Virus record (IMG/VR): IMGVR_UViG_3300042520_001767
Location: 130,625-194,624 of that record
DNA length: 64,000 nt
From: a virus
Direction: 5' to 3' (one strand)
The position numbers and the translations under genes were made by a program. The notes under the pieces are model-generated. The model was given only the letters and a program-made list of their open reading frames with translations. It was not told the DNA's origin and made no database searches. Shown in pieces: positions 5,304 through 64,000 of the stretch; the stretch's first letter is position 1; each line of letters opens with the position of its first letter.

Positions 5304-7003
5304 TAGTTAATGTACATATTTAATTCATAATTACCACTATCCATACGATAGATTTGAGCGTGGAAACCTTTTCGTTGTGGTTTTCCGTTTAATGTAAGTT
5401 CTTTATTATATCTTTGTGTTTGACCATAAGCAACATGTTGAGGGTCAGATAATTCAAATTCGATTGGTTCGTATCCTCTTGTAATTACATATCTTTCAGC
5501 TTCAGAAAAACAACTAGCAAGTGTTTTATGATAAACCTCATAATCAAATTTACCCTCATTCATTGCTTTTGGGTCTGGTGTTACTTCTGGGCTTGGTAAA
5601 AAAGGTTTATTTTTTCTACTTGGCACTATATTAGGTTGTATTTTATCTGGTGCTGGTTTAATTTGTGGTTGAACTGTTGGTTCAACATCATGATTAAATG
5701 TTTCTTGTACTTTCATCTTTAAATAATTTTTATCAAAGGTACTGTTTTTTTTATCAGAAATCAAACCCTCACCAACAATTTTAGAAACTGGTTTTGATGA
5801 CCACATTTTACATGACCAATACTTAGGTGTTGTTTTATCTTTTGCTTGTGCACATTTATGTCTTGCTCTGAAAGATTTTCTCCTCTCTGGGTTATCTCTT
5901 TTTATTTCCATATTAGGGTCACCAAAATTAACCTTTATAACATTACCTTTTTTATTTTTAACATAAACTTTGAATTTTTTTACATCACCAGAACTAGGTT
6001 TCCCTAATTTAACTTCTTTCCCATGATATTCAGCTTCATTTAAATTAACGTTTTCAACAGAACCATATTCATCAGTATAACCACCTTCGGTTTCACCATC
6101 ATACTCATTTAAATTACCTTCAAAAAAGTGGTACACTTCTTCAATATCATCAGCAGATGAACTTATATGGTCAACAGCCCATGCATGTCCATTTGCACAC
6201 ATTTCATCAATTTGTTGTCGGTTCATTTCTAATAACTCCCCAGATGCGTGGTGTATCGTTTTAAGGTTTTGCCAAAACATATAATTAAGTGACTCATTAT
6301 CGTTTATCACTTCATGGTTTTCGTTAATTGGGACACAATTAGGTACTTGTTTACCATTTTTTTCTTTCATACCTATTTGTTTATAACCTTTCCAACATGA
6401 CTCATTTAGTTTATCATTTGAACCTGGTTGGAACATGTTGTTTTTCTTAGGTTTATCCAAGAATAAATTATCCATTTCATATAATGAATATTCTTGTAAA
6501 CCTTCTTCATCTCCAGATTCATCAGAACTTATTTCATCATTAGAAATATCACTAGTTTCATCACTAGAATTATCTTCACCATTATTACCAGCTGAATTAA
6601 TTTTTTTAATTATATCTTTTTTATCGTTTTCGTCCATTTCAGAAGTGTGTGTTGCTGAAATTAAAGAGTTTATCGCAAATTTTTCTAAGTCAAAGTCAGG
6701 TTGACCTTGAGTTTCAGTGTATTTTCTTAAAGATTGACCCAGTTTACCTGTAAGTTGTTCAATAAATTTTTTAGGGTCTGTTTCTTCATCTGCATCAACA
6801 CCAGCATCAAATGGTTCATCATCAAATGGTTTATCATCAGATACTGGTTCTTCACTACCACTTTCACTATCCCCAAAATCACCAAAACCAGCTTCATCAG
6901 CTGGTTCGGAAATAGGTTCCGCTGGGGCTGGTGCTGGAGCCGCTGGGGCTGGTGCATCAATCTTCAGCTTATATTTTACTTCGTTTACTTTTTCGTTACT
7001 ACT
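5303..7003 (-). CDS. Hypothetical protein; C-terminal part of a probable -1 frameshift fusion with 6985..7986
   Basis: Frame of track ORF 5303..6637 is open up to about 7021 with no ATG/GTG/TTG; the extension encodes SSNEKVNEVKYKLKIDAPAPAAPAPAPAEP...; contains KVNFGDPNM...RRKSFRARH.C...YWSCKMW and CWKGY...VPNCVP modules typical of T4-like phage proteins. Confidence 0.75.
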   Translation of the reverse strand, partial: SSNEKVNEVKYKLKIDAPAPAAPAPAPAEPISEPADEAGFGDFGDSESGSEEPVSDDKPFDDEPFDAGVDADEETDPKKFIEQLTGKLGQSLRKYTETQGQPDFDLEKFAINSLISATHTSEMDENDKKDIIKKINSAGNNGEDNSSDETSDISNDEISSDESGDEEGLQEYSLYEMDNLFLDKPKKNNMFQPGSNDKLNESCWKGYKQIGMKEKNGKQVPNCVPINENHEVINDNESLNYMFWQNLKTIHHASGELLEMNRQQIDEMCANGHAWAVDHISSSADDIEEVYHFFEGNLNEYDGETEGGYTDEYGSVENVNLNEAEYHGKEVKLGKPSSGDVKKFKVYVKNKKGNVIKVNFGDPNMEIKRDNPERRKSFRARHKCAQAKDKTTPKYWSCKMWSSKPVSKIVGEGLISDKKNSTFDKNYLKMKVQETFNHDVEPTVQPQIKPAPDKIQPNIVPSRKNKPFLPSPEVTPDPKAMNEGKFDYEVYHKTLASCFSEAERYVITRGYEPIEFELSDPQHVAYGQTQRYNKELTLNGKPQRKGFHAQIYRMDSGNYELNMYIN

Positions 7004-7986
7004 TTTTTTTTTACAGTACCTTCAGTTAATGAAGTAATCATTTTATCTAATTTTTTCACACTTTCTTCCATAGCTCTCAAAGAAGCCAAATCCATTGCAT
7101 CGATATCACCATCACCACCTTCTGGTTCAACATCTAATCTTTGTTGACCACCATGTAATTCTTCATTTGTTTGTGATAAAATAGAAGAAATTTTTTCTAA
7201 GTCAGTTATTGTTCCACCTGGATACGCTAACGATACTATTGAAATATTCTCTGGTGTAACATCAACACCTCTTTCAACTAATTTTGATTTTAAAAATTCA
7301 ACTAAATCATATGCTTCATGGTCAACACCCTCAGAAGCATTTTCTGGAATATTTATTTCTCTTGGTGGGTTAGGTAATTGATTAGGGTCGTTTTTTCTTC
7401 CCATTTGATAATCAACGTATTCTTCCTCTTCATTTCTAGCCATCATTTCTTCAATAGCTTGTTCAAATTCATTTAATTCTTCTTCTAACGTTTCTTCTTC
7501 ATACACTTCTTCTTTGTACATTTCTTCATTTCCATGTAAATTACCAGCACCAGAAAATCCGTTACTAGAACCACTAGAAAAACCAGCAATACCACTTTCA
7601 GATAACAAATTATCATCTTCAAATACATTTATATCACCACCTTTATTAAAAGCTTCAGCCAATGATTTAAACTTAAAATTTAATTGCTTTATTGCACGAG
7701 CATAAGATGGATACGCTTCTTCTTTTTTGTTTTGTAAACCACCGATATATTTGAAATCCTCTAACACTAAACCAGTTGTTTTAGTTGTTTTTTTGATATA
7801 ATATTCATGGTTTTCTCTAACAATAGCATATGCACTACCATCTGGTCCAATTTTAGTTAATTCAACAGCTGAATTTGTTTTATTTTCATTTTCATTTATT
7901 GGTTTCATTCCCATAAGAGATAATTGACGTTCAAGAATTTCTTTACCTTTAAGACCAATCGGACTAATTAATTGTTTATTTTTCAT
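6985..7986 (-). CDS. Hypothetical acidic phage protein (333 aa), N-terminal part of frameshift fusion
   Basis: ORF ending VKKKVVTKK over an A10 run. Confidence 0.8.
   Translation of the reverse strand: MKNKQLISPIGLKGKEILERQLSLMGMKPINENENKTNSAVELTKIGPDGSAYAIVRENHEYYIKKTTKTTGLVLEDFKYIGGLQNKKEEAYPSYARAIKQLNFKFKSLAEAFNKGGDINVFEDDNLLSESGIAGFSSGSSNGFSGAGNLHGNEEMYKEEVYEEETLEEELNEFEQAIEEMMARNEEEEYVDYQMGRKNDPNQLPNPPREINIPENASEGVDHEAYDLVEFLKSKLVERGVDVTPENISIVSLAYPGGTITDLEKISSILSQTNEELHGGQQRLDVEPEGGDGDIDAMDLASLRAMEESVKKLDKMITSLTEGTVKKKVVTKK
7003..7012 (-). other. A10 slippery site (-1 frameshift or transcriptional slippage)
   Basis: GTA AAA AAA AAA GTA; the -1 frame joins the downstream ORF. Confidence 0.65.
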
Positions 7987-8007
7987 AATTTATTACTTTT
8001 TATTTTG

Positions 8008-8250
8008 TTATAAGTTTGGGCTACCTAAATATACATCCCTATTTTCACCTAATAGGTAACACCCAGTACCACCAGATACTGACCTTACCCATAATGAGAT
8101 ATTAGAAGACGGTGCAACGTTAATTGATACATTATTAACTAGAATTACACAACCAGCGGTTCCACCATATATTTCGCTATAAGTATGGGCTGTTAAATTA
8201 GCATTAGCTGCTAGTACTATAATACTATGTATATCATTTATTTTTGGCAT
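8008..8250 (-). CDS. Small protein (80 aa) paralogous to the N-terminus of 8555..10795
   Basis: MPKINDIHS...YSEIYGGTAGC...GCYLLGE aligns by eye with MPNINAHS...YTEILGGSSGC...GCYLGGE. Confidence 0.8.
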   Translation of the reverse strand: MPKINDIHSIIVLAANANLTAHTYSEIYGGTAGCVILVNNVSINVAPSSNISLWVRSVSGGTGCYLLGENRDVYLGSPNL

Positions 8251-8315
8251 AACTTTTTTGTTTTTATTATAAATATGTTAATATTTTAATTTGTTCTAAA
8301 TATGTATTTTTTTAT

Positions 8316-8555
8316 TTAATTTGGTAAATTAGATGCACAACAATCACCATCACAACCAAAACCACAAAAATCATTTGGTGTTAATTCAATATTGTTTTTA
8401 CTAAAATATTGTCCAAAAAATATTAACCTCTCATTTAATTCAATTTCTGAATCAAAAAACTCTAAAAATGGTTGTCCACTTTCAATTATTTGATTATCTT
8501 TTAATTCCCCATAAAGGAAAACATCTAATTCATTATGTGTAAAAAAATATCTCAT
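8316..8555 (-). CDS. Hypothetical protein (79 aa), coupled to the DUF285 gene
   Basis: TAATG stop/start overlap at 8555 gives a better start than the track start 8585. Confidence 0.65.
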   Translation of the reverse strand: MRYFFTHNELDVFLYGELKDNQIIESGQPFLEFFDSEIELNERLIFFGQYFSKNNIELTPNDFCGFGCDGDCCASNLPN

Positions 8556-10795
8556 TATATTATCCCTCCATCTATTATTGTCCAATTGTTAGGTGCTGAT
8601 ATTAAAACAGCTCTAGCTGATAACGCAGCGTTTGTGTATTTAATAGTTCCAAAATTAATAACTAAATTTGGTTTAACTGGTCTAGATGCCCAACCTATTA
8701 ATAAAGAATCATAATTTGTTGTTGAGTAATCGTTAAATGTTTTCCCTTCCATAAAATTAGTAGTAGTGGTTGAAAACGAAGTTACTCCACTAACAACCCA
8801 ATTATTAATTGGTTGGTCAAAACCAGTTGCGTAATAAAAACAACTTGACATACCAGAAACTGATTTTGTATCCCATGAGTTTATTGGTTGGTTAAAATTA
8901 TTTTGGTTAAAATAAATGGAATTTATGTTAGTCACCTTACTTGTATTCCAGTTTTTAATACTATCTGAACCACCATTATTAAAACTACCATAATCAAATT
9001 TAACACCAAACATAAACGACATACTAGTAACATTTGAGGTACTCCACGCACTATATGTAACACCACTAATTGTAACTAACTTAGTTCCAATATCTTGATT
9101 GAAATTATTACAACCATAAAACATTGTTTGCATTGTTGTCACCTTACTTGTATTCCAGTTTTTAATACTATCTGAACCACCATTATTAAAACTACCAATC
9201 ATATTAAGGTTATTACTAAACATAAACGACATACTAGTAACATTTGAGGTACTCCACGCACTATATGTAACACCACTAATAGTAACCATCTTGGTTCCAA
9301 TATCTTGATTGAAATTTGGTTGACTTTGGAACATCGTTTGCATTGTTGTTACTTTACTTGTATTCCAATTTTTAATACTATCTGAACCACCATTATTAAA
9401 ACTACCATTAGTTGTAGACCCACCATTAAACATAGTTGACATATTAGTGACATTACCCACATCCCATGCACTATATGTAACACCACTAATTGTAACTAAC
9501 TTAGTTCCAATATCTTGATTGAATTTTGGTTGATTTTGAAACATTGTTTGTGTTGTTGTTACTTTACTTGTGTTCCAATTTCCAATATTTTGGTTAAAAT
9601 TACCTATATTTGTTGTTGTATTAGCAAATATAAATGCCATACTAGTGACATTAGCCACATCCCAAGCAACATATGTTACATCATTTATACTAACTAATTT
9701 AGTTGATAAATCTTGATTGAAATTTACTTGATTTTGGAACATCGTTTGTATTGTTGTTACTTTACTTGTATTCCAATTTCCAATATTTTGGTTAAAAGCA
9801 CCAAAATTCGGTCCTATAATACCAAACACAAACGCCATACTAGTAACGTTAACAACATCCCAAGCAACATATGTCATACCATTTATTGTAACTAATTTAG
9901 TTGATAAATCTTGATTGAAATTTACTTGATTATAAAAAGTACCGTACAGGGTCGTTACTTTAGTTGTGTTCCATTTACTGATATCTTGGTTAAAAAGACC
10001 ACGACCAGTTGTTATAAAAAAAGTAGCGTTAAGTGTTATAACATTACTTATATTCCAATTACTTATATCTGAATTAAAACTAATACTATCAGAAAATGTT
10101 GCGTCTAAACTTGTTATGTTTGAAACATCCCATTCATTACTTCTATTTATTGTAGTTATGGCTAAACAACCTCTAAATGAACCAGCTAGTGTTGTTGTAT
10201 CAGTTAAATTTAAAACATCACTAACATTATTTAATGTTAAATTAGCACAACCATAAAAATGTTGGTCTGTTGCACCTAATCTAAAACTATTTCCCCATTG
10301 AGTTATCGCTATTAATTTTAACCTATCACCAGTGTTAGCAAATCTCCATCCATTACATACCCCAGTTATTTTTATTTGATAAATACCAGGTAAACTATAA
10401 GTATGTGTGGTTTCAGCTTGATTCCATGAAGTTATTTTACTACTGGTTCCATCACCCCATTCAACAATAAATCTATAAGTACCTGTCGATATTAATGGTA
10501 ATCTTATTTGTGTTGCGGTTGAACTACCAGCACTGGTGTTATTAGTTAACCATGTTGATATAAAACTTTTTCCAGATTCAAACCATGGTCTTTCACCACC
10601 TAAATAACAACCAGTAGTTGCACTTATTGATTTAACAATAAGTGAAAAACTAGAATATGGTGAAACATTAACTAAAACGTTATTCACGTTCATTGTACAA
10701 CCAGACGAACCTCCAAGTATTTCAGTGTAATTTAAATCGTATAATTCACCATCTTCAGCTGGAACAACGAAACTATGTGCATTTATATTTGGCAT
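8555..10795 (-). CDS. BspA-like/DUF285 repeat surface protein with PKD-like domain (746 aa)
   Basis: Repeats FNQDI..W.TS.VT.M..MF; VEWGDG...THTY..PGIYQIKI PKD-like motif; near-identical DNA repeats at about 8.9-9.95 kb. Confidence 0.85.
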   Translation of the reverse strand: MPNINAHSFVVPAEDGELYDLNYTEILGGSSGCTMNVNNVLVNVSPYSSFSLIVKSISATTGCYLGGERPWFESGKSFISTWLTNNTSAGSSTATQIRLPLISTGTYRFIVEWGDGTSSKITSWNQAETTHTYSLPGIYQIKITGVCNGWRFANTGDRLKLIAITQWGNSFRLGATDQHFYGCANLTLNNVSDVLNLTDTTTLAGSFRGCLAITTINRSNEWDVSNITSLDATFSDSISFNSDISNWNISNVITLNATFFITTGRGLFNQDISKWNTTKVTTLYGTFYNQVNFNQDLSTKLVTINGMTYVAWDVVNVTSMAFVFGIIGPNFGAFNQNIGNWNTSKVTTIQTMFQNQVNFNQDLSTKLVSINDVTYVAWDVANVTSMAFIFANTTTNIGNFNQNIGNWNTSKVTTTQTMFQNQPKFNQDIGTKLVTISGVTYSAWDVGNVTNMSTMFNGGSTTNGSFNNGGSDSIKNWNTSKVTTMQTMFQSQPNFNQDIGTKMVTISGVTYSAWSTSNVTSMSFMFSNNLNMIGSFNNGGSDSIKNWNTSKVTTMQTMFYGCNNFNQDIGTKLVTISGVTYSAWSTSNVTSMSFMFGVKFDYGSFNNGGSDSIKNWNTSKVTNINSIYFNQNNFNQPINSWDTKSVSGMSSCFYYATGFDQPINNWVVSGVTSFSTTTTNFMEGKTFNDYSTTNYDSLLIGWASRPVKPNLVINFGTIKYTNAALSARAVLISAPNNWTIIDGGII

Positions 10796-13326: not shown

Positions 13327-14145
13327 ATGAATAGAGAGATTTATCCAAAAGTTAAAATAATTATGACGAATTCAATTAAAGAAGCCAAAAACTTTGATGA
13401 TGTAAAAGTTAGACCAGAACATATTATTTTATCTATGTTATTAGATGACGATAATGAATGTGTGAAAACACTTAAAAAACTAAAAATAGATACTACAGAA
13501 CTTTATGATAAATTATCTGATTACGTTAGAAAAAATGATTTAACACCTAGAGCGTATACCTCAGTAAAACGAACACTACCTTTTTCTGAAGAAACCAAAT
13601 CAATAATAGCTAAAGGTGTTGATAAAGAATGTGAAGGGTTAAATGATACCATGATTGACACAACACATATCATGTTAGCTATTTTAATAACTAAACAACC
13701 AGTTGTTGATTTTTTAAATTCTGTAGGGGTGAATTATAATTTATTTAAAATAACTATGATAGGAAACAAACCAGAAGACATCAAAAACGGTGCATTAGGT
13801 GATGACATGAATGAAGAAAATGATTCATTCAAAAAGAAACAAAAACCAATCGACCCAAAAAGTAAAACACCAGTTCTGGATAATTTCTGTAGAGACGTGT
13901 CTAAAGCTGTTGAAAAAGGGGAGATTGACCCAGTTGTTGGTAGAACTACCGAAATAAAACGTGTTTCTCAAATCCTTTCTAGAAGAAAGAAAAATAACCC
14001 AATCCTTATCGGTGAACCAGGTGTTGGTAAATGTTTTATTGGTGATACTCAGGTAGTTATGAGGAATGATTTAACTGGTGAAGTTTTTAAAGCTACTATA
14101 AATGAATTCCTAAAAACGTTTACCGATACCGAAACAACAAATTAA
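13327..14145 (+). CDS. clpC: ClpC-type AAA+ chaperone, N-terminal fragment fused to a 37-aa split-intein N part
   Basis: Clp-N repeats, DPVVGR.EI....QILSRRKKNNPILIGEPGVGK followed by CFIGDTQV... and a stop. Confidence 0.92.
   Translation: MNREIYPKVKIIMTNSIKEAKNFDDVKVRPEHIILSMLLDDDNECVKTLKKLKIDTTELYDKLSDYVRKNDLTPRAYTSVKRTLPFSEETKSIIAKGVDKECEGLNDTMIDTTHIMLAILITKQPVVDFLNSVGVNYNLFKITMIGNKPEDIKNGALGDDMNEENDSFKKKQKPIDPKSKTPVLDNFCRDVSKAVEKGEIDPVVGRTTEIKRVSQILSRRKKNNPILIGEPGVGKCFIGDTQVVMRNDLTGEVFKATINEFLKTFTDTETTN
14032..14142 (+). mobile_element. Split intein N-fragment (37 aa)
   Basis: Block A CFIGDTQVVM directly after Walker A Lys. Confidence 0.88.
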
Positions 14146-14206
14146 ACAATTATTATTTATCTTTCTTGTAAATTCTTTATATTTATAAGAAAGATAAATT
14201 TAAAAT

Positions 14207-15640
14207 ATGAAAATAAAATATAAAAAAAATGGTAATTTTGAAATAGAGTTTACTGATTATTTCAAAACTATTGATGATTTAAAAGAATTTATTAAAAAAA
14301 ATAATAAGTTTGTTAATGTTGAAAACATAGAATTAAAAATAATAAATGTATATAACGAATTAGCTAATTTAGATGTTAGTATTAAATCTAGTATTTTAGG
14401 TTGGACAGTTATTAAACAATTTAAATTTAAATATGTTAGACCAAACAATATTAATTTCTGGTTAGAAAGGGGTTATGGTATTGATGAATTTAATCAATAT
14501 AATAATTCATTAATTAATGAATTATGCGATATAAATAACAATAAATTCAAATTTAATAATTTTAAATTTGAAATGATTGGTATACCTAAATGTAAACTTT
14601 GTGGGTCTAATTTAAAAATAGAACCATCTATTGGTCGTTATAATATTATTTGTTGTTTGAACAGTGAGTGTGATACTAATAAACATAAAGAAATTGAATC
14701 AATTAGTCATTTAAGTTTTTTACCTATTGATATGTTTTTGAATAAAAATAAACGAATAAATATAACTAGCAAAATTAATAAAGAATATTGGTTATTGAAT
14801 GGTTATACATATCTTGATTCAATCAATAAAGTTAAGGAAATAAAGAATAATTTAAAATTAGTAAATGTTAATAGTTTTGAGTATTACAAAACAACAACAG
14901 ATAAAACAGATGATGAGATAAGAAAAACAATCAAAGAGATGTCATCATTATGTGTTGAATATTGGTTAGAAAAAGATATAACATTAGAAGAGGCTAAAAA
15001 TAAAATATCTAACTTACAAAAAATAAATTCAAATAAAATAATCAAAAAAAGAAAAGAAAATCCAGAACAATATTCAGCAACAACTCAAACACAAATTGGT
15101 TATTGGTTGAATAAGGGTTTTAGTGAAGAAGAAAGTAAAATAAAATTATCTGAAAGACAAACAACTTTTAGTCTTGAAAAATGTATTCAAAAATATGGTG
15201 AAACAAATGGTTTAAAAAGATTTAATGAAAGACAAAAAAAATGGTTATTGAACAATAAAAGAAACAATTTCTCTAAAATATCACAAGATTTATTTTGGGA
15301 TATTTTAGAATCGGATAAATCAATAAGTGATAATGAGATATATTTTGCGACATATAATAATGGTGAAAAAAACAATAGTGGGAAAAATCATGAATATCGA
15401 TTAGACGTAATTGAAAGTTATATACTACCAGATTTTTTTGATAAAACAACTGGGAGAATAATCGAATTTGATGGAACTTATTATCATAGGTTAACTCCAG
15501 AAAATTCATTAAGAGAGGAAAAAAGAGATAAAATGATAATTAAATCTGGTTATGAAGTGTTACATATTAGTGAATTAGATTATAAAAATAATAAACAAGA
15601 AATAATAGACAAATGTGTTGCGTTTCTAAATAAAAAATAA
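14207..15640 (+). CDS. Free-standing putative homing endonuclease (Vsr/DUF559-like PD-(D/E)XK C-terminus)
   Basis: C-terminal PDFF...IIEFDGTYYH...RD..I...GY.VLHI.E; repeated YWL.KG motifs; lies between the intein halves. Confidence 0.75.
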   Translation: MKIKYKKNGNFEIEFTDYFKTIDDLKEFIKKNNKFVNVENIELKIINVYNELANLDVSIKSSILGWTVIKQFKFKYVRPNNINFWLERGYGIDEFNQYNNSLINELCDINNNKFKFNNFKFEMIGIPKCKLCGSNLKIEPSIGRYNIICCLNSECDTNKHKEIESISHLSFLPIDMFLNKNKRINITSKINKEYWLLNGYTYLDSINKVKEIKNNLKLVNVNSFEYYKTTTDKTDDEIRKTIKEMSSLCVEYWLEKDITLEEAKNKISNLQKINSNKIIKKRKENPEQYSATTQTQIGYWLNKGFSEEESKIKLSERQTTFSLEKCIQKYGETNGLKRFNERQKKWLLNNKRNNFSKISQDLFWDILESDKSISDNEIYFATYNNGEKNNSGKNHEYRLDVIESYILPDFFDKTTGRIIEFDGTYYHRLTPENSLREEKRDKMIIKSGYEVLHISELDYKNNKQEIIDKCVAFLNKK

Positions 15641-15671
15641 TAACTTTACAAAAATAAAAATAAAAATAAAT

Positions 15672-16076
15672 ATGATTAACGAATTTAAAAAAATAACAAA
15701 ATCATTTGATATGAGTGATTTTAGTATCTTAACTGATACTGGTTTTGAAAAATTAGAAAAATTACATGAAACAATTCCATATGATGTATATCATCTTAAA
15801 TTGGCTGATGGTAAAGAATTAAAATGTGCTGATAATCATATCGTATTTATTCAAGAATATGATGAATCAACAATGGAACCAATCTTTTTAAAAGAAATTT
15901 TTGTTAAAGATTTACCTAAACATTCATTTATTATGGTGTCTGATGATAATGGTAATTTAAGTGAATCTGAAGTTGTTGAAATAACCAATTTAGGTTATGA
16001 AGAAATCATGTATGATTTTGAATTAACTGAATCATCAAATAGACGTTATTTCACAAACGGAATTTTATCACATAAT
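15672..16076 (+). mobile_element. Split intein C-fragment (135 aa)
   Basis: Contains blocks B, F and G and ends His-Asn before Thr. Confidence 0.88.
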
Positions 16077-17882
16077 ACATCTATCGTTGAAGGTTTGGCT
16101 CAAATAATACACGAAGGTAACGCACCTAGAACACTTATTGGTAAACGTATCTATGCGTTAGACTTATCTAGCATTGTTGCTGGTACAAAATACCGTGGAC
16201 AATTTGAAGAAAGAATGAAAGCAATTCTAGAAGAATGTAAAGCTAACCCAGATATCGTATTATTTATCGATGAATTACATACAATCATTGGTGCTGGTAA
16301 CGCTTCTGGTTCTCTGGATGCTGCAAACATCTTCAAACCAGCATTGGCTCGTGGAGAACTTCAAGTAATTGGTGCAACAACACTTGATGAATACAGAGAA
16401 AATATTGAAAAAGATGGTGCTCTAGTTAGACGTTTTCAACAAGTGCTTATTGAAGAACCAACATTAGACGAAACAAAAATTATTCTTAATAATATCAAAG
16501 AAAAATACGAGAAACATCATAGAGTTAAATATACTGACGAAGCTATTGAAGAATGTGTTAAATTATCAGCTAGATATATAATGGATAGAAGTATGCCAGA
16601 TAAAGCTATTGATGTTTTAGATGAAGCTGGTGCAACAACTAATATTAGTGTTGAAAAACCAGATAATATCAAAGAATTAGAGAATAAAAGAACTGAAATT
16701 AATGAAAAGAAAAAAGAAGTAGTTGTTAAACAGAAATACGAAGAAGCAGCAAAGCTTCGTGATGAAGAGAAAAAGGTTACAATTGAGTTAGAAAAAGCGA
16801 TGACTGATTGGCAATCTAAATTAGATAATAACGTTACTACCGTAGGTGTTGAAATAATTTCAGAGGTTGTATCTATGATGACTGGAATCCCTCTAACGAA
16901 AATATCTACTCAAGAGACAAAAAGACTTATGAGTTTGGATAAAGAACTCATGGGTAAAGTTATTGGACAAGACGATGCAGTTGCCAAGGTTGTAAAAGCA
17001 ATAAAACGTAATCGTATTGGAATCAAAGATAAAAATAAACCTGTAGGTAGCTTTATTTTCCTAGGTCAAACAGGTGTGGGTAAAACGCTGTTAGCCAAGC
17101 TTTTAGCTGAACAAGTATATGGAGATTCTGATTCATTAGTAAGAATGGACATGTCTGAATATATGGAGAAACATTCTGTATCAAGACTTATTGGTCCACC
17201 TCCTGGGTATGTTGGGTATGACCAAGGTGGTCAATTAACTGAGAAAGTTAGACGTAAACCACATTGTGTTATTTTATTTGATGAGATTGAAAAAGCACAT
17301 GACGATGTATTTAACTTGTTATTACAGTTATTAGATGAAGGTATGCTTACAGATGGTCTGGGTCGTAAAGTTAATTTCAAAAACACTCTTATCATTCTAA
17401 CATCAAATATTGGTGTTAGAGAAGTTAACACTTTTGGTAAAACTATGGGTTTCGAAACAGCTGAAAGTATTGTAAATGAAGAAAACAGAGCTCGTTCAAT
17501 TATTGAAAAAGCTTTGAAGAAAAAATTCAAACCAGAATTCCTAAACCGTATTGATGAAGCAATTGTATTTAGAAGTTTAACTGAAGAAGATATACATAAA
17601 ATCATCTATTTAGAAATTGAAAGCTTACAAAAACGTGTAATTGAAATGGGGTATAACCTAACAGTAACAAAAGAAGCTATTGAATTTTTAGGTAAACAAG
17701 GTTATGATGAAGCTTATGGTGCTAGACCACTAGCCAGAGCTATCCAACATTATGTTGAAGATAAAGTAGCTGATGAGATACTAAACGAAAACATAAAAGA
17801 AGGTGAAACGATAGAAGTTTCATTCGATACTAAAAACGAAGAATTGGTTATTAAACCAATTAAAACTAAAAAAATTAAATAA
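15672..17882 (+). CDS. clpC: Split-intein C part (135 aa) fused to ClpC C-terminal fragment
   Basis: CADNH block B, YFTNGILSHN|TSIVEGLA, LFIDELH, second Walker A GQTGVGKT, FDEIEKAH, YGARPL. Confidence 0.93.
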   Translation: MINEFKKITKSFDMSDFSILTDTGFEKLEKLHETIPYDVYHLKLADGKELKCADNHIVFIQEYDESTMEPIFLKEIFVKDLPKHSFIMVSDDNGNLSESEVVEITNLGYEEIMYDFELTESSNRRYFTNGILSHNTSIVEGLAQIIHEGNAPRTLIGKRIYALDLSSIVAGTKYRGQFEERMKAILEECKANPDIVLFIDELHTIIGAGNASGSLDAANIFKPALARGELQVIGATTLDEYRENIEKDGALVRRFQQVLIEEPTLDETKIILNNIKEKYEKHHRVKYTDEAIEECVKLSARYIMDRSMPDKAIDVLDEAGATTNISVEKPDNIKELENKRTEINEKKKEVVVKQKYEEAAKLRDEEKKVTIELEKAMTDWQSKLDNNVTTVGVEIISEVVSMMTGIPLTKISTQETKRLMSLDKELMGKVIGQDDAVAKVVKAIKRNRIGIKDKNKPVGSFIFLGQTGVGKTLLAKLLAEQVYGDSDSLVRMDMSEYMEKHSVSRLIGPPPGYVGYDQGGQLTEKVRRKPHCVILFDEIEKAHDDVFNLLLQLLDEGMLTDGLGRKVNFKNTLIILTSNIGVREVNTFGKTMGFETAESIVNEENRARSIIEKALKKKFKPEFLNRIDEAIVFRSLTEEDIHKIIYLEIESLQKRVIEMGYNLTVTKEAIEFLGKQGYDEAYGARPLARAIQHYVEDKVADEILNENIKEGETIEVSFDTKNEELVIKPIKTKKIK

Positions 17883-44965: not shown

Positions 44966-45136
44966 AATTTCTTTGTGTTAATTGATTAGATTACAAAGAT
45001 AATAAATTTATTTCAACATACCAAATTTATTTTAACTTATTTTTAATTGTATTATTACCTTTTTGTTTTTCAATTACATTTATACAATGTGGTAACTTTA
45101 TCCATTGGTTTTACTATATGTTTACTACATTAGTCA

Positions 45137-45159
45137 CTGTTAGCAGGTAGTTATAACCA
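45137..45159 (+). mobile_element. Array head site A (attI-like or half attC)
   Basis: CTGTTAGCAGGTAG|TTATAACCA; 18/20 identical to 51991-52010. Confidence 0.55.
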
Positions 45160-45162
45160 ATA

Positions 45163-45399
45163 TTAAAAAGCATCTTCATCTTCGTAATATGTGTTTTCTC
45201 CACGAATCGCATAAATTTCTTTTAATAAGTCTTTATCGTCAATTAACCTTGTTAAAAGTGTTTCATCCCATTTGCCCATATCTGATAAATCGTCATTTAA
45301 ACTTTCTAAAACTTCTAAAGTATTATCTACTTCTTCATCTCCATAATCTGAACGCAACTCATTTAATTCAATTTCAATTCTTTGTTTTAAATTTTCCAT
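45163..45399 (-). CDS. Cassette ORF, hypothetical (78 aa)
   Basis: Between head site A and attC-like site 1. Confidence 0.75.
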   Translation of the reverse strand: MENLKQRIEIELNELRSDYGDEEVDNTLEVLESLNDDLSDMGKWDETLLTRLIDDKDLLKEIYAIRGENTYYEDEDAF

Positions 45400-45411
45400 A
45401 ATAAATACTGG

Positions 45412-45545
45412 TTATAACAGCAATTACACGATATTGCTAGATTGTGATTAATTTAAACTTTGTTTTGTATCTTTCAATTCCGTGTTAAACCGAAAGATAG
45501 TTTTGTGCTTTTACGCAACAGACGTGTAGCTGCAAAACGTTGGCG
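45412..45545 (+). mobile_element. attC-like site 1
   Basis: TTATAAC-A-GCAATTACACG...CGTGTAGCTGC-AAAAC-GTTGGCG. Confidence 0.75.
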
Positions 45546-45713
45546 GTCATTGTACCACCAAAAGGATAAAATAAAAGTTCATTGACAATATTAAAGATGC
45601 TTTGTGCAGACGCAGAATGCTGTAATAGTTTTGTTTCGGTAATCTATTTTTATAATGCAGTGTCGTTGACACTTAAAACTATTTCAAAATTAACAAATAA
45701 AAAAAGAAAGCTT

Positions 45714-45851
45714 ATGAAACAAATTAAAAAGTTACCAAAAACCGTGAAGTCAATTATTGTTCAATCTATTAAAACACTTTGGGTTATCGGGACATCTATT
45801 ACGGCAACTGCCGTTCTGTCTTCATCATTATATTGTCAAAGAACTAATTAA
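45714..45851 (+). CDS. Possible small peptide (45 aa) in a largely non-coding cassette
   Basis: MKQIKKLP...; the track start 45582 is doubtful. Confidence 0.3.
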   Translation: MKQIKKLPKTVKSIIVQSIKTLWVIGTSITATAVLSSSLYCQRTN

Positions 45852-46229
45852 AATATTATTTAAATGTTCATTGAAAATATTGAAAGTACCTACGTTAACT
45901 GACCACTAACGTAACAATTAATCAAACCAAAGTAAGGCTTGTCGTTTTACTTTTGATTAATTTGTGAATAACAAAGTGTTTATCGGAAACCGTAAGAGGT
46001 TGGTCGCTTACCGACAAAAAAATAATCCATAGAAATGGGAACAATTATTTTTGGGGCGTACATTCTCCTAAGAAAATTAAGAAAGTTTGTAAAGATTAAA
46101 TTTGACGTAACAATTAGATTTAAAAACTAACAAACCGAGCCGAAACTCTTAGGAGGGGTAAGCTCAACATAAGGACACTTTCAATATATTTCAAAGAACT
46201 TAATTGTATTAATAAACAAAACAACGAAC

Positions 46230-46355
46230 CGCCAACAGCAGTTACACAAGATGCAAGGATTTAGTGGAATTACCGTTTCGCATTGAACTTTTATCTTAAA
46301 TAGAAAATATGCAGTCACGAAGTCTTGCACCTCGTGTAGCTGCGGAACGTTATAA
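46230..46355 (+). mobile_element. attC-like site 2
   Basis: CGCCAAC-A-GCAGTTACAC...GTGTAGCTGC-GGAAC-GTTATAA. Confidence 0.75.
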
Positions 46356-46361
46356 GCTATG

Positions 46362-46595
46362 TTACTTAGACCACGCAGAATCGTTTTTCAACATCCGAAG
46401 AACCGCAGGAAATAAGTGTTGTAAATCATTAGCAGTTAATCCTTTCTTTTCGGCAACAACTGCCATATAATGAGCTAACATTGCTTCATCTTCGGTATCT
46501 TCTGTAAAAAGCCAATTTTGCACCATTTTATTTGCTGGTGTTACTTCTTTTATCCCTTTATTCCATTTGAAATTTAATACTTGTGAATTTTCCAT
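46362..46595 (-). CDS. Hypothetical protein (77 aa)
   Basis: Stop abuts attC 2; start behind a promoter module. Confidence 0.75.
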   Translation of the reverse strand: MENSQVLNFKWNKGIKEVTPANKMVQNWLFTEDTEDEAMLAHYMAVVAEKKGLTANDLQHLFPAVLRMLKNDSAWSK

Positions 46596-46669
46596 AACGT
46601 TTATTGATTAGATTACAAATATAAAACAAATAATCCACACTACCAAATATAATATGGATTATTTTTAAT

Positions 46670-51990: not shown

Positions 51991-52013
51991 CTGTTAGTAA
52001 GTAGTTATAAGAA
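51991..52013 (+). mobile_element. Array head site B (attI-like or half attC)
   Basis: CTGTTAGTAAGTAG|TTATAAGAA. Confidence 0.55.
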
Positions 52014-52020
52014 ATAAAAA

Positions 52021-52176
52021 TTATTTCTCATCTCTTATCTTCAACATCCAATCAGCCATATTATATGCGCTTTTTGAAAGTTCTTTATAGTTTTCTAAAT
52101 GCTTTGTTCTTGTATAAATTATTTCCATAGCTTTTATCGCTAGTTTATCTCTTAAAGTTAATTTATTTTTACCCAT
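52021..52176 (-). CDS. Cassette ORF (51 aa, not in track)
   Basis: Manual: MGKNKLTLRDKLAIKAMEII...KIRDEK. Confidence 0.65.
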   Translation of the reverse strand: MGKNKLTLRDKLAIKAMEIIYTRTKHLENYKELSKSAYNMADWMLKIRDEK

Positions 52177-52188
52177 AATTTTTACTTC

Positions 52189-52322
52189 TTATAACAGCAA
52201 TTACACGCTATTGCTAGATTGTGATTAATTTAAACTTTGTTTTGTATCTTAAAGTTCCGTGTTAAACTGAAAGATAGTTTTGTGCTTTTACGCAACAGAC
52301 GTGTAGTTGCAGAACGTTATAT
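52189..52322 (+). mobile_element. attC-like site 3 (near-identical to site 1)
   Basis: TTATAAC-A-GCAATTACACG...CGTGTAGTTGC-AGAAC-GTTATAT. Confidence 0.78.
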
Positions 52323-52328
52323 GATAGC

Positions 52329-52559
52329 TTACCCAACATCGTGTCCGAACTTTATATCGAAATAATTTGAACTATCAATCACATCGTTTTCATTTGCACA
52401 ATAACCATCAAGCCAAGCATCTGTAATTTGCTCTTTTTCTAATTCAATATATTTTTTATTTTTAATTATTGCTAATACGCTTCTACCTACAAATCCTGAA
52501 TCTCCTTCTTTTTTAGCTAATTCTGTAAAATCATTGATTAATTTTTGTAATGCTGTCAT
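52329..52559 (-). CDS. Cassette ORF, hypothetical (about 76 aa)
   Basis: Start MTALQKL; between attC 3 and 4. Confidence 0.75.
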   Translation of the reverse strand: MTALQKLINDFTELAKKEGDSGFVGRSVLAIIKNKKYIELEKEQITDAWLDGYCANENDVIDSSNYFDIKFGHDVG

Positions 52560-52583
52560 AATCTTTGTGTTTAAAAAGCCATC

Positions 52584-52714
52584 ATATAACAATTCATTGT
52601 AGCAATTGTGGCACTTGGCTTTATTAATAATTGGTTTTGTACTTGTTTGGTTAGGTTTTAATTCGATAATTTGGCAGTCCTAATCCACAACTGCAACAAT
52701 GCTTAACGTTATAA
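52584..52714 (+). mobile_element. attC-like site 4
   Basis: ATATAAC-AATT-CATTGTAGCAATTGTGG...CCACAACTGCAACAATG-CTTAAC-GTTATAA. Confidence 0.72.
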
Positions 52715-52720
52715 GTAATA

Positions 52721-52942
52721 TTATTTTTGTTGCTCATCCGTAATAAATCCACCTATCCTTCCAAATCCTTCCCTCTCATATACATAAACAAATTTACCTT
52801 TAGCATTTTTAAATAAATTTTCAATATTATTAGTTTGTTTAACTGAGTAAATTTCACCATTTTCATTAATCATTATTACGGATGGTACATAAAACCAATC
52901 TTTAACCTCATATTTTTTTGCTAATTCATTATATTTTTCCAT
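52721..52942 (-). CDS. Cassette ORF, hypothetical (73 aa)
   Basis: Between attC 4 and 5. Confidence 0.75.
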   Translation of the reverse strand: MEKYNELAKKYEVKDWFYVPSVIMINENGEIYSVKQTNNIENLFKNAKGKFVYVYEREGFGRIGGFITDEQQK

Positions 52943-52980
52943 AATTTCTTTTTATATCGTAAAACAAAAATAATACATAT

Positions 52981-53034
52981 TTATAACAAATGATAAACAA
53001 CATTAAAACGATTGTTTATCATCGGACGTTAGCA
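52981..53034 (+). mobile_element. attC-like site 5 (short, 54 bp)
   Basis: TTATAAC-AAA-TGATAAACAA...TTGTTTATCA-TCGGAC-GTTAGCA. Confidence 0.75.
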
Positions 53035-53041
53035 GAAATGG

Positions 53042-53467
53042 CTACTGACCGTACTTCATTGAAAGTTCTTCAAATTTTCTGCGTTCAGATTGTTCCTTTA
53101 ATCTTTTATCTCTTGCTTCTCTTAATTTAGGTAGTCTAACTTTGATATTACCCAACCACTCATTAAAACACACTTTTACATTTTCAAAATATTCAGGTTT
53201 ATCACAATCTTGTTTTCTACCATAAAATATCTCTCCATTGTCATCTACTATAATGTTTTGCTTTTGAAAAGTAAGGTTACTGAATGAAAACAACCCACCA
53301 AAAGGATAGTCGTTGAATGAAGAAGAAGATTGTTTATGCCATCTTTTGCAAGCCGATAATAAGTCTTTTTCATTTTCAATCGTACAACTATCATCCCAAG
53401 TGTCTTCATTATACATATAATGTCCTCTTTGAGAGTAGTTCACTATAATTCTTATTTTACGTTCCAT
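53042..53467 (-). CDS. Cassette ORF, hypothetical (141 aa)
   Basis: Between attC 5 and 6. Confidence 0.75.
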   Translation of the reverse strand: MERKIRIIVNYSQRGHYMYNEDTWDDSCTIENEKDLLSACKRWHKQSSSSFNDYPFGGLFSFSNLTFQKQNIIVDDNGEIFYGRKQDCDKPEYFENVKVCFNEWLGNIKVRLPKLREARDKRLKEQSERRKFEELSMKYGQ

Positions 53468-53513
53468 TTTTCTGTGTTTTTAAATTATACCCTTGTAAAT
53501 TAACCGCCACTAC

Positions 53514-53644
53514 CGCTAACAAGGGTTTGTAGCAATAGGGGCAGAAGTGCTTTAATTAAGCTGTGTACTTCTAATCAGCTTTGGTGGTACATTGAACAGT
53601 AGTGCTATAAATCCCCTACTGCTACAAGCCCAGAATCGTTAGGC
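53514..53644 (+). mobile_element. attC-like site 6
   Basis: CGCTAAC-AA-GGGTTTGTAGCAATAGGGG...CCCCTACTGCTACAAGCCC-AGAATC-GTTAGGC. Confidence 0.78.
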
Positions 53645-53872
53645 AAAATGTAAAACAGAACCACCACTTGATATAGCTAAATTATTTGCGGTTGAATATT
53701 CCATTTTTCTTGCTTCGTCTTTATCAAAAGTCCAATTAAATTTATACCCATTTAATGTGCTATATCCGTGTCCTTTCATAAATTTTTTACCCTTTTTAAC
53801 CAAATACACTTCGCCTAACATCCGTTTTGCGTCAGGCGGGTTTTGGTGGTTAATTTTTGTTTCTGTTTTCAT
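53639..53872 (-). CDS. Cassette ORF (77 aa) whose N-terminus is encoded inside attC 7
   Basis: MKTETKINHQNPPDAKRMLGEV reads through the site. Confidence 0.65.
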   Translation of the reverse strand: MKTETKINHQNPPDAKRMLGEVYLVKKGKKFMKGHGYSTLNGYKFNWTFDKDEARKMEYSTANNLAISSGGSVLHFA

Positions 53873-53946
53873 ATCAAATTTTGTAATTAAGTGAAAGTTT
53901 TGTGCTTCGATTTCCCGCCCGAACGCAAAGCGGAGTTCCGTTAGCA
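53813..53946 (+). mobile_element. attC-like site 7
   Basis: GCCTAAC-AT-CCGTTTTGCGT-CAGGCGGG...CCCGCCCG-AACGCAAAGCGG-AGTTCC-GTTAGCA. Confidence 0.78.
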
Positions 53947-53950
53947 GTAA

Positions 53951-54133
53951 TTATTCCCACTTTGGTGCTCTATCGTGTTCAATACATAAATTTTCAACTA
54001 TGCTTTGAGCAATTATCTCTAATTCTTCCTCGTCAATATGGTTTATCAATACGGAGTTTCTTAATGTATCTAAAACATTTTCTTTTGTGCTTTGTGTTGC
54101 CATCACGTTTAGTATTATAACTACTGCTAACAT
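53951..54133 (-). CDS. Cassette ORF, hypothetical (50-60 aa)
   Basis: Between attC 7 and truncated attC 8. Confidence 0.6.
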   Translation of the reverse strand: MLAVVIILNVMATQSTKENVLDTLRNSVLINHIDEEELEIIAQSIVENLCIEHDRAPKWE

Positions 54134-54250
54134 TCGCTAAACAATAGTTGGGTTAATTTTTAAATTTAAAGTTCAGTTTGTACTTTTTTAATCAGTCTTT
54201 TACCTAAGTTTGGGTTTGTGACCATTTTTGAATTTCGTTTGTTTCAAGTA
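54125..54250 (+). mobile_element. attC-like site 8, left arm only
   Basis: TGCTAAC-ATT-CGCTAAACAATAGTTGGG...; right arm replaced by a 31-codon ORF and a promoter module. Confidence 0.55.
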
Positions 54251-62305: not shown

Positions 62306-62886
62306 TAAATCCAACTTATTAAGAATCATTATAAATAAACTAAATATTTTGGTATATCCAATTATTATAACTACCTTTGTAGGTAAATTGATAATATAAC
62401 TATTTTTGCCTATGTAAACAATTATAACCATAACCATTATTATACCCATACCACAAATAGTGGATGGAGAAATACACCCAAAAAGTAATCTTTTTGGGCA
62501 AGTATACATGCTCATAACTCAAGAAGTTATGAGCTAAACTTGTGTACCCATATTTGTGGAATAATCCACACGAAACCATATACCCAAATTTTAAATATCG
62601 GGTAAGGTTCTATATATAATAATGTTAACCAGTCATTTTGTTATTTAGCAAACTAATAATATTAAATTCAATTTTAATAGGTTATCTCAATTTAATAACC
62701 TAATTTTATTATCAACACTATAAAAAACCCGAAGGCATGACGTGAACCAAGTTTAAATAACCCTTGTATACACAATTGTGTACATGTAGGAGTAATACTA
62801 TACCCTTATCTTAATATTGGTAAGGAAAACCATGCAAAAAAATTTCAGCTGGAAAATTAGTCGAGAGTTTGAGAACAGTATAGAGT

Positions 62887-63040
62887 TTTTCTATCATTTT
62901 CTGTATTATAATTTTCTATCATTTTCTGTATTATAATTTTCTGTCATTTTCTTATATTATAATTTTCTGTCATTTCCTATACTATTATTTCCTATATTAT
63001 AGTTTTCTGTCATTTCCTATACTATCATTTCCTATATTCT
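62887..63040. repeat. About five 25-26-bp degenerate tandem repeats
   Basis: TTTTCTATCATTTTCTGTATTATAA twice, then variants. Confidence 0.8.
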
Positions 63041-63283
63041 ATCTATCTTCTTTATCTATTATGTTTATTGGTTCATTACCAATCAATACTTTATGCTTAT
63101 ATAGTATTAAATAATCATTTTCTATTTTGTGGTACTACTTTCTTACTTCTTTTCTTTATTTCTGGTATCAATAGCCCTTTTTATCATCAAAAACGCATTA
63201 TAATTCTTACGTGAGAATTTAGGTACATAAAAGAACTAATATTTATATAATAATATTATATATTAGTACTTACTTTGCTAGTT

Positions 63284-63703: not shown

Positions 63704-63743
63704 TTCTATTATATTTTTAGTTGAATGGGTGTTTTTGTTGTGT

Positions 63744-64000
63744 TTATTTATTATATACTGAATTCCATACTGAATCACTTACTGAATCCCTTACTGAATT
63801 ACTTACTGAATCCCTTACTGAATTATGTACTGAACGATTTACTGAATTCCATACTGAAATACTTACTGAACTATATACTGAATCCCATACTGAATTCCTT
63901 ACTGAATTATCTACTGAATTCCATACTGAATTCCTTACTGAAATACTTACTGAAATACTTACTGAAATACTTACTGAAATACTTACTGAATCGCATACTG
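63744..64000 (-). CDS. 3' end of a protein with (S-V-x-x)n tetrapeptide repeats
   Basis: About 21 12-bp units TACTGAAnnnnn; minus frame reads ...SVRNSVWNSVDNSVRNSVWDSV...SVWNSVYNK-stop. Confidence 0.65.
   Translation of the reverse strand, partial: VCDSVSISVSISVSISVSISVRNSVWNSVDNSVRNSVWDSVYSSVSISVWNSVNRSVHNSVRDSVSNSVRDSVSDSVWNSVYNK

Follow-up and report, generated by a model that had tools for sequence, protein, structure and literature searches.

Integrons are known as gene-capture devices of bacteria, and the question raised by this viral locus is whether its small genes and structured sites constitute a cassette system of that kind and, if so, which enzyme could move them. Two arrays, A and B, were recognized in the window, the whole stretch of 64,000 nucleotides analyzed here (Table 1). 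Array A is, with good though not complete confidence, an integrase-less integron-type cassette cluster (CALIN) located among the early genes of a large Flavobacterium phage. The criterion for such a cluster, at least two close attC sites with no integrase nearby, was met by the two full sites of array A, which are 687 bp apart, and by the six sites of array B. Both arrays fall outside the strict integron definition.

The arrays are surrounded by about 30 promoter/stem-loop modules, and between 33 and 64 kb of the window dozens of small genes on the - strand each lie behind a repeated promoter/terminator module; the attC-like sites and these modules have no sequence in common. A + strand promoter box, TATCTTTGTAATGTAGATA, is also repeated (33895, 34660, 37936, 57132, 59735, 61062, and 62235), and behind each box lies a conserved, ORF-free stretch of 60-100 nt that may represent a small RNA family. 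Elsewhere, the large terminase subunit (2-2476, - strand) is split by an intein with a LAGLIDADG endonuclease domain, and a ClpB/ClpC-like ATPase (13327-17882, + strand) is in two pieces, the second beginning with an intein fragment, with an ORF of a DUF559-type endonuclease between them. Two tandem repeat arrays (62867-63043 and 63716-63991), whose periods are about 25 nt and 12 nt, occupy the right end of the window.

Table 1. Coordinates of the two arrays and their parts (positions in the window)
Feature	Position	Strand	Description and basis
Array A	45150-46601	+	Head site, two complete cassettes, third unit without attC
Array A head site	45120..45150	+	...CACTGTTAGCAGGTA|G, last letter is the G of the first GTT; read directly
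Cassette 1	45151..45539	+	389 bp; from TTATAACCA... to the G closing attC 1
Cassette 1 cargo ORF	45163..45399	-	78 aa; antisense to attC polarity; ORF list
attC 1	45409..45541	+	R'' TGGTTATAAC, stem GCAATTACAC/GTGTAGCTGC, spacer AAAAC, then GTT; phage subtype; covariance model 104.5 bits, E 3e-20
Cassette 2	45540..46349	+	810 bp; almost non-coding; small + strand ORFs only (ORF lists)
attC 2	46228..46351	+	Host chromosomal subtype; covariance model 76.7 bits, E 3e-14
Third unit	46350..46604	+	Starts TTATAAGCT; ends ATAAC|GTT fused to promoter module; read directly
Third unit ORF	46362-46595	-	77 aa; no family (Pfam, PHROGs)
Phage promoter/terminator module	46597..46668	-	TTGATTAGATTACAAATATAA class; right end of array A; repeat families D1-D4
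Array B	52004..54239	+	Head at 52004; covariance-model matches and signature pairs
Array B attC sites	52187-52318, 52582-52710, 52979-53030, 53512-53640, 53811-53942, 54123-54239	+	Covariance model

The ends of the cassettes provide the first line of evidence. The sequence-only reading had claimed that the head site is the exact complement of the opening of attC 1, that the close of attC 1 is the exact complement of the opening of attC 2, and that these junctions delimit two cassettes. All four motifs were recovered where they had been placed (GTTATAACCA at 45150-45159 and TGGTTATAAC at 45409-45418; GTTGGCGGT at 45539-45547 and ACCGCCAAC at 46228-46236), and in both cases the pairing runs further than had been claimed: the ends of cassette 1 pair over 10 bp, an A/G mismatch and 4 bp, and those of cassette 2 over 9 bp, a bulged T, an A/G mismatch and further pairs. 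Both proposed cassettes are supported by signature pairs, at 45150/45418 (type A, with the junction 9-mer present upstream) and at 45539/46236 (type B, with the bulged T). An inverted repeat of the form GTT...AAC brackets every cassette and extends to about 15 nt, interrupted by a fixed A/G mismatch or by a bulged T. A signature scan of the whole window returned five such pairs, all in the + orientation and all within arrays A and B, compared with 0 to 1 pairs in each of 30 shuffled windows (mean 0.1). The disappearance of the junction matches in a larger sample had been named as an outcome that would refute the earlier reading, and this did not occur: among 72 elements drawn from IMG/VR, phage records and the window, 54 had an exact reverse-complement 9-mer no more than 3 kb upstream, usually at a distance of 200-600 bp, against a mean of 3.5 and a maximum of 10 in permuted controls. 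The element type is present in 71 IMG/VR stretches and 62 stretches of Flavobacterium genomes, and across all loci the signature delimits 248 phage and 181 bacterial cassettes. The junction rule is hence an observed property, which meets the integron criterion of a G|TT cassette boundary whose first bases are complementary to the cassette's own R''; the exact crossover point is inferred.

The remaining parts of array A are less regular. On direct reading the head site has no 5' arm, and the covariance model described below gave no match there; it resembles a truncated attC of which only the 3' arm is left and is not a proven attI, with no recombinase beside it. The same head class, GTTAG-N-TA|GTT, is found in array A, in array B (52004) and in several phage loci without a recombinase. 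The GTT closing attC 2 begins at 46349, and the unit beyond it contains no attC core and no covariance-model match; ATAAC|GTT at 46597-46604 is a site remnant that abuts the promoter module, in agreement with the earlier suggestion that the attC of this unit had been lost to such a module, and may have been left by recombination at a secondary GTT within the module. Array B includes a short attC of 52 nt (52979-53030) and a decayed one (54123-54239). With regard to cargo, Pfam and PHROGs assigned no family to the ten small ORFs examined in or beside the arrays, except for weak PHROG matches of unknown function for a 51-aa ORF of array B; the ORF of cassette 1 matched neither database. The ORFs of cassette 2 are exemplified by one of 45 aa (45714-45851, +), and the cargo DNA of this cassette was not found in 401 Flavobacterium genomes, which gave only short A-rich chance matches.

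The structure of the sites was observed by covariation as well as by folding. Site lengths range from 52 to 141 nt with a sharp mode at 128-134 nt. In an alignment of 94 sites the mean column identity was only 39%, with an invariant starting AAC and closing CGTT, and all 11 pairs predicted by RNAalifold showed double compensatory changes (for example, GC 30, CG 20, UA 15 and AU 13 at one pair); at one alignment position a T.G pair was kept in 58 sequences. Applied to the window, the covariance model built from this alignment gave eight matches, four of them to sites that had not been used in building it; every match is on the + strand and falls within array A or array B. Single-strand folds of the sites within the arrays barely exceeded those of shuffled sequences (z between -0.5 and -2.2); the structure became clear only when the circular junctions were rebuilt and covariation was considered. 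Junctions were rebuilt for four window cassettes, that of cassette 4 with its join at 52706, which is 2 nt before the closing G at 52708. Each formed one long hairpin with a variable tip, in which an asymmetric internal loop lies between the outer stem (15-21 bp) and an inner stem containing a mismatch. In all four the - (bottom) strand gave the more stable fold; the strand actually used is an inference. Bottom-strand folding into attC-like sites, proposed earlier as a check, was borne out as regards the long hairpins with their mismatch and, in cassette 2, a bulged T, but not as regards the unpaired bases, which are not at the canonical attC positions. The criterion for an attC site (an imperfect hairpin, AAC/GTT R boxes, an inner L-box stem, an unpaired spacer, bases that are unpaired or extrahelical, and a length of 57-141 nt) was met.

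Comparison between phages indicates that cassettes move as units. It had been inferred from the window alone that the site is reused and the cargo exchanged, on the basis of near-identity between attC 1 and attC 3 behind unrelated ORFs; the two sites (attC 3 at 52187-52318) are identical at 123 of 132 positions, an unrelated ORF indeed precedes attC 3, and the inference extends to other phages, in which 53 cassettes with sites of the attC 1 type carry 45 unrelated ORF families and whole cassettes recur. For three pairs of otherwise unrelated contigs, the homologous stretch is delimited by the G|TT ends of a cassette (in L001 and L065 the homology covers 601-1046 and the cassette 601-1040, with 95% identity), and the structured 130-nt site always travels with the unit. 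Two further contigs, L054 and L067, share the same ORF, with junction sequences that differ between the two contigs but remain matched within each cassette, and several phages have the same gene beside the head site and a different first cassette past the GTT. Homologues of the cassette 1 ORF exist at 61-99% identity; two of them (88-89%) lie inside attC arrays of phage contigs of 34-73 kb, where the homologue and a methyltransferase-like gene form a two-gene cassette. The alternative assignment of each ORF to the attC downstream in the sense direction was rejected, as an ORF keeps the attC on one side and its other neighbour changes. Unit mobility is thereby observed across contigs, and the claim that the cassettes had been circles recombined at G|TT is supported by the boundaries, where homology ends. 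For array A itself, neither a circle or other recombination product nor an empty site came to light. Homology to sister jumbo phages ends ahead of the head site, at 45026, and is not regained further along the loci; the sisters diverge over the entire array A region, and no precise empty site could be defined in them. Recombination of the sites by a cognate recombinase is inferred.

The absence of such products leaves some room, though not much, for the view that the arrays are inert relics, which entered once by any form of recombination, have not moved since, and keep their sites as spacers or leaders. The lack of a recombinase in the window and sister records, the truncation or decay of the third unit and of several array B sites, and the failure to recover an empty site would all suit relics. 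They are outweighed by three observations: attC 1 is 85-95% identical to sites of unrelated Flavobacterium phages despite unrelated cargo, a pattern that speaks for selection acting on the site; the same cassettes are found as exact units in more than one phage; and the junction mismatch and bulge have been retained over hundreds of cassettes. That the system is currently active in this particular phage is nevertheless an inference.

The link to host arrays is also directly observed. Of 101 Flavobacterium genomes sampled, 84 contained matches to the covariance model, frequently with more than 30 matches per genome. attC 2 is 96-98% identical to attC sites of chromosomal arrays in F. erciyesense, F. 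succinicans and others, and its matches comprised 30 bacterial and 6 phage loci; with attC 2 of the host type and attC 1 of the phage subtype, cassettes of both types lie side by side in array A. In F. faecale and F. frigoris the host arrays begin 45-150 bp past a recombinase gene, and in F. ponti and other Flavobacterium species the array likewise adjoins such a gene. The locus of F. faecale WV33 (L104:603-5822, chromosome positions about 3,664,600-3,669,800) has its array after a 350-aa recombinase on the same strand (L104:603-1655), with the first cassette, preceded by a TATATTTAAGA|GTT junction, starting at 1804; F. frigoris has a similar layout with a recombinase ORF of 584 aa. A TATATA-N3|GTT motif precedes the recombinase-proximal first cassette in L104, L091, L128 and the phage locus L020, and the array heads in the window, which have no adjoining recombinase, belong to another class. 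Taken together, virus and host appear to share one gene-shuffling system.

These host loci also bear on a reading of the elements as structured RNA or regulatory signals (leaders, antisense RNAs or terminators), whose flanking complementarity would serve 5'-3' pairing of cistrons at the RNA level. The sites do lie just upstream of each - strand ORF, with some cargo start codons in array B overlapping the AAC of a site (e.g., the ATG at 53819-53821), and the mismatch of the outer stem would be a G.T wobble on the mRNA-sense strand. In bacteria, however, sites of the same family are found downstream of ORFs on the other strand and beside a recombinase, so that the position of the family relative to transcripts is not fixed; G|TT is the exact point at which homology between contigs is lost; and a search of the window against Rfam at gathering thresholds, together with a tRNA scan, found nothing. 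This reading is accordingly regarded as very improbable, and array A continues to be treated here as a CALIN.

As to the enzyme, no recombinase was detected among 30 ORFs of at least 183 aa scanned in the 64-kb window only, in 16 of the 19 near-complete phage records in which the site occurs, or, for tyrosine recombinases, in four sister jumbo-phage records that are 20-58% complete. The host array-linked tyrosine recombinase is closest to integron integrases (TIGR02249, 207-217 bits), and host and phage array-linked recombinases together scored 140-217 bits, under the cut-off of 265. The match to TIGR02249 is in two pieces, and the host enzymes lack roughly profile positions 177-239; the best solved structure for the host enzyme is VchIntIA (2a3v), and the alignment to it shows the same gap. 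The criterion of an adjacent intI with the IntI-specific additional domain was therefore not met. In known integrases this insertion contacts the extrahelical bases of the site; without it, recognition by the array-linked recombinase must differ, an inference for which there are no recombination data. A few phages carry a 266-aa homologue beside the array (40% identical, E 4e-64). One of them, IMGVR_UViG_3300033566_000060 (L020; 69.8 kb, with terminal repeats), has a complete integron-like layout at 6700-9510, in which the gene of the 266-aa Xer/IntI-like recombinase (8710-9510) and the attC array are divergent, with about 50 bp between the 5' end of the gene and the start of the first cassette. 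Since none is encoded in the window, the enzyme acting on array A would most likely be supplied in trans, by the host or by a recombinase-carrying co-infecting phage.

A last alternative, that the ORF units are small transposon-like elements whose terminal inverted repeats are moved by a transposase or HUH nuclease with AAC/GTT targets and no tyrosine recombinase, can hardly be maintained, for although an inverted repeat of 15-21 nt brackets each ORF, no transposase was found among the large window ORFs scanned, the repeat sequence varies by cassette with only GTT/AAC fixed, the 130-nt structured site always moves with the unit, and a tyrosine recombinase adjoins the arrays in hosts and some phages.

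For the CALIN interpretation, the following mechanism may be proposed. Each cassette is a discrete unit ending in an attC-like site of about 130 nt, and in the cassette circle its two ends would form the outer stem of the folded site; the complementarity of the cassette ends is proposed to result from the former existence of the unit as a circle. Exchange would take place at G|TT, at sites belonging to the family used by Flavobacterium chromosomal arrays beside an Xer/IntI-like tyrosine recombinase. Phage cargo is antisense to attC polarity, whereas bacterial cargo has the canonical sense orientation, and the criterion of sense cargo expressed from a Pc promoter at the attI end is not met in phage. 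The sole promoter module of array A sits at its far end and is likely the promoter for the - strand cargo, although its role in transcription is inferred; the antisense cargo would probably be read from it, and the array could serve as a store in which small early genes are swapped in and out. This cargo orientation, opposite to that of canonical integrons, counts against the CALIN explanation, as do the lack of a recombinase in the window, the missing IntI-specific insertion of the array-linked enzyme, the lack of a recombination product for array A and the weak single-strand folds of the sites within the arrays. The earlier designation of the array as integron-type can consequently be retained for the structure of its sites, but not in the sense of a canonical integron, given the absence of an integrase from the window, the antisense cargo and the missing IntI insertion.

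A broader hypothesis can be advanced only tentatively, with somewhat less than even confidence: Flavobacterium and its phages may share an undescribed integron class, characterized by an Xer-like recombinase without the IntI insertion and a long outer stem with a fixed mismatch, in which virulent phages, mostly lacking a recombinase, borrow the host enzyme to exchange small early genes among themselves and with arrays of the host, the cargo, perhaps of counter-defence function, being reversed for phage promoters. Chromosomal integrons have been found to store anti-phage defence genes (bioRxiv 10.1101/2024.07.02.601686). The presence of the same sites in virulent phages of the same genus points to a route for rapid reshuffling of early genes, and the 96-98% identity of an array A site to host sites suggests that host and virus exchange small genes directly and in both directions. 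The findings also suggest that a recombinase need not have the domain considered diagnostic of integron integrases in order to operate a cassette array, in which case the search space for integron-like systems would be wider.

Several known systems resemble parts of this one. In the integration of CTX phage at dif, the substrate of an Xer-type recombinase that lacks the IntI insertion is a folded DNA hairpin; the likeness lies in this type of tyrosine recombinase and in the folded single-stranded site, but whole elements integrate at dif and cassette arrays are not involved. In T4-type phages, PeSL promoter/stem-loop modules, which Arbiol et al. are said to have described in 2010, reportedly occur between small early genes, with modular shuffling proposed, and reportedly act via homologous recombination between modules. 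Repeated promoter/stem-loop modules among small early genes of a large phage are likewise found here, but the attC-like sites are a separate element with site-specific boundaries and a link to a recombinase, and the PeSL criterion is not met. The Vibrio cholerae superintegron, a sedentary chromosomal integron whose attC repeats are species-specific, contains near-identical sites (VCRs) of about 120-130 nt, with R''/R' complementarity and exchange at G|TT. It is similar in its long arrays and in the near-identical structured sites that follow unrelated small ORFs, whereas the Flavobacterium arrays adjoin a recombinase that lacks the IntI insertion and is co-directional with the cassettes, and their outer stem is at least 15 nt long with a fixed mismatch.

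A literature search yielded no description of this Flavobacterium system, which is not proof of absence. The closest precedent is the report by Qi et al. (2023, PMC9892861) of 17 CALINs among 10,705 phage genomes, one of them in a virulent Polaribacter phage; some phage attC sites recombined with attI1 under IntI1, and Flavobacterium phages did not turn up in a term search of the paper. Like array A, those clusters have at least two attC-type sites with cassettes and no integrase nearby. In contrast to them, the sites analyzed here are up to 98% identical to those of the host genus and occur in 71 IMG/VR stretches, their cargo is consistently antisense, and an Xer-like recombinase is linked to them. 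Phage CALINs are already published, and the Flavobacterium cluster is a distinct and better-supported variant of them.
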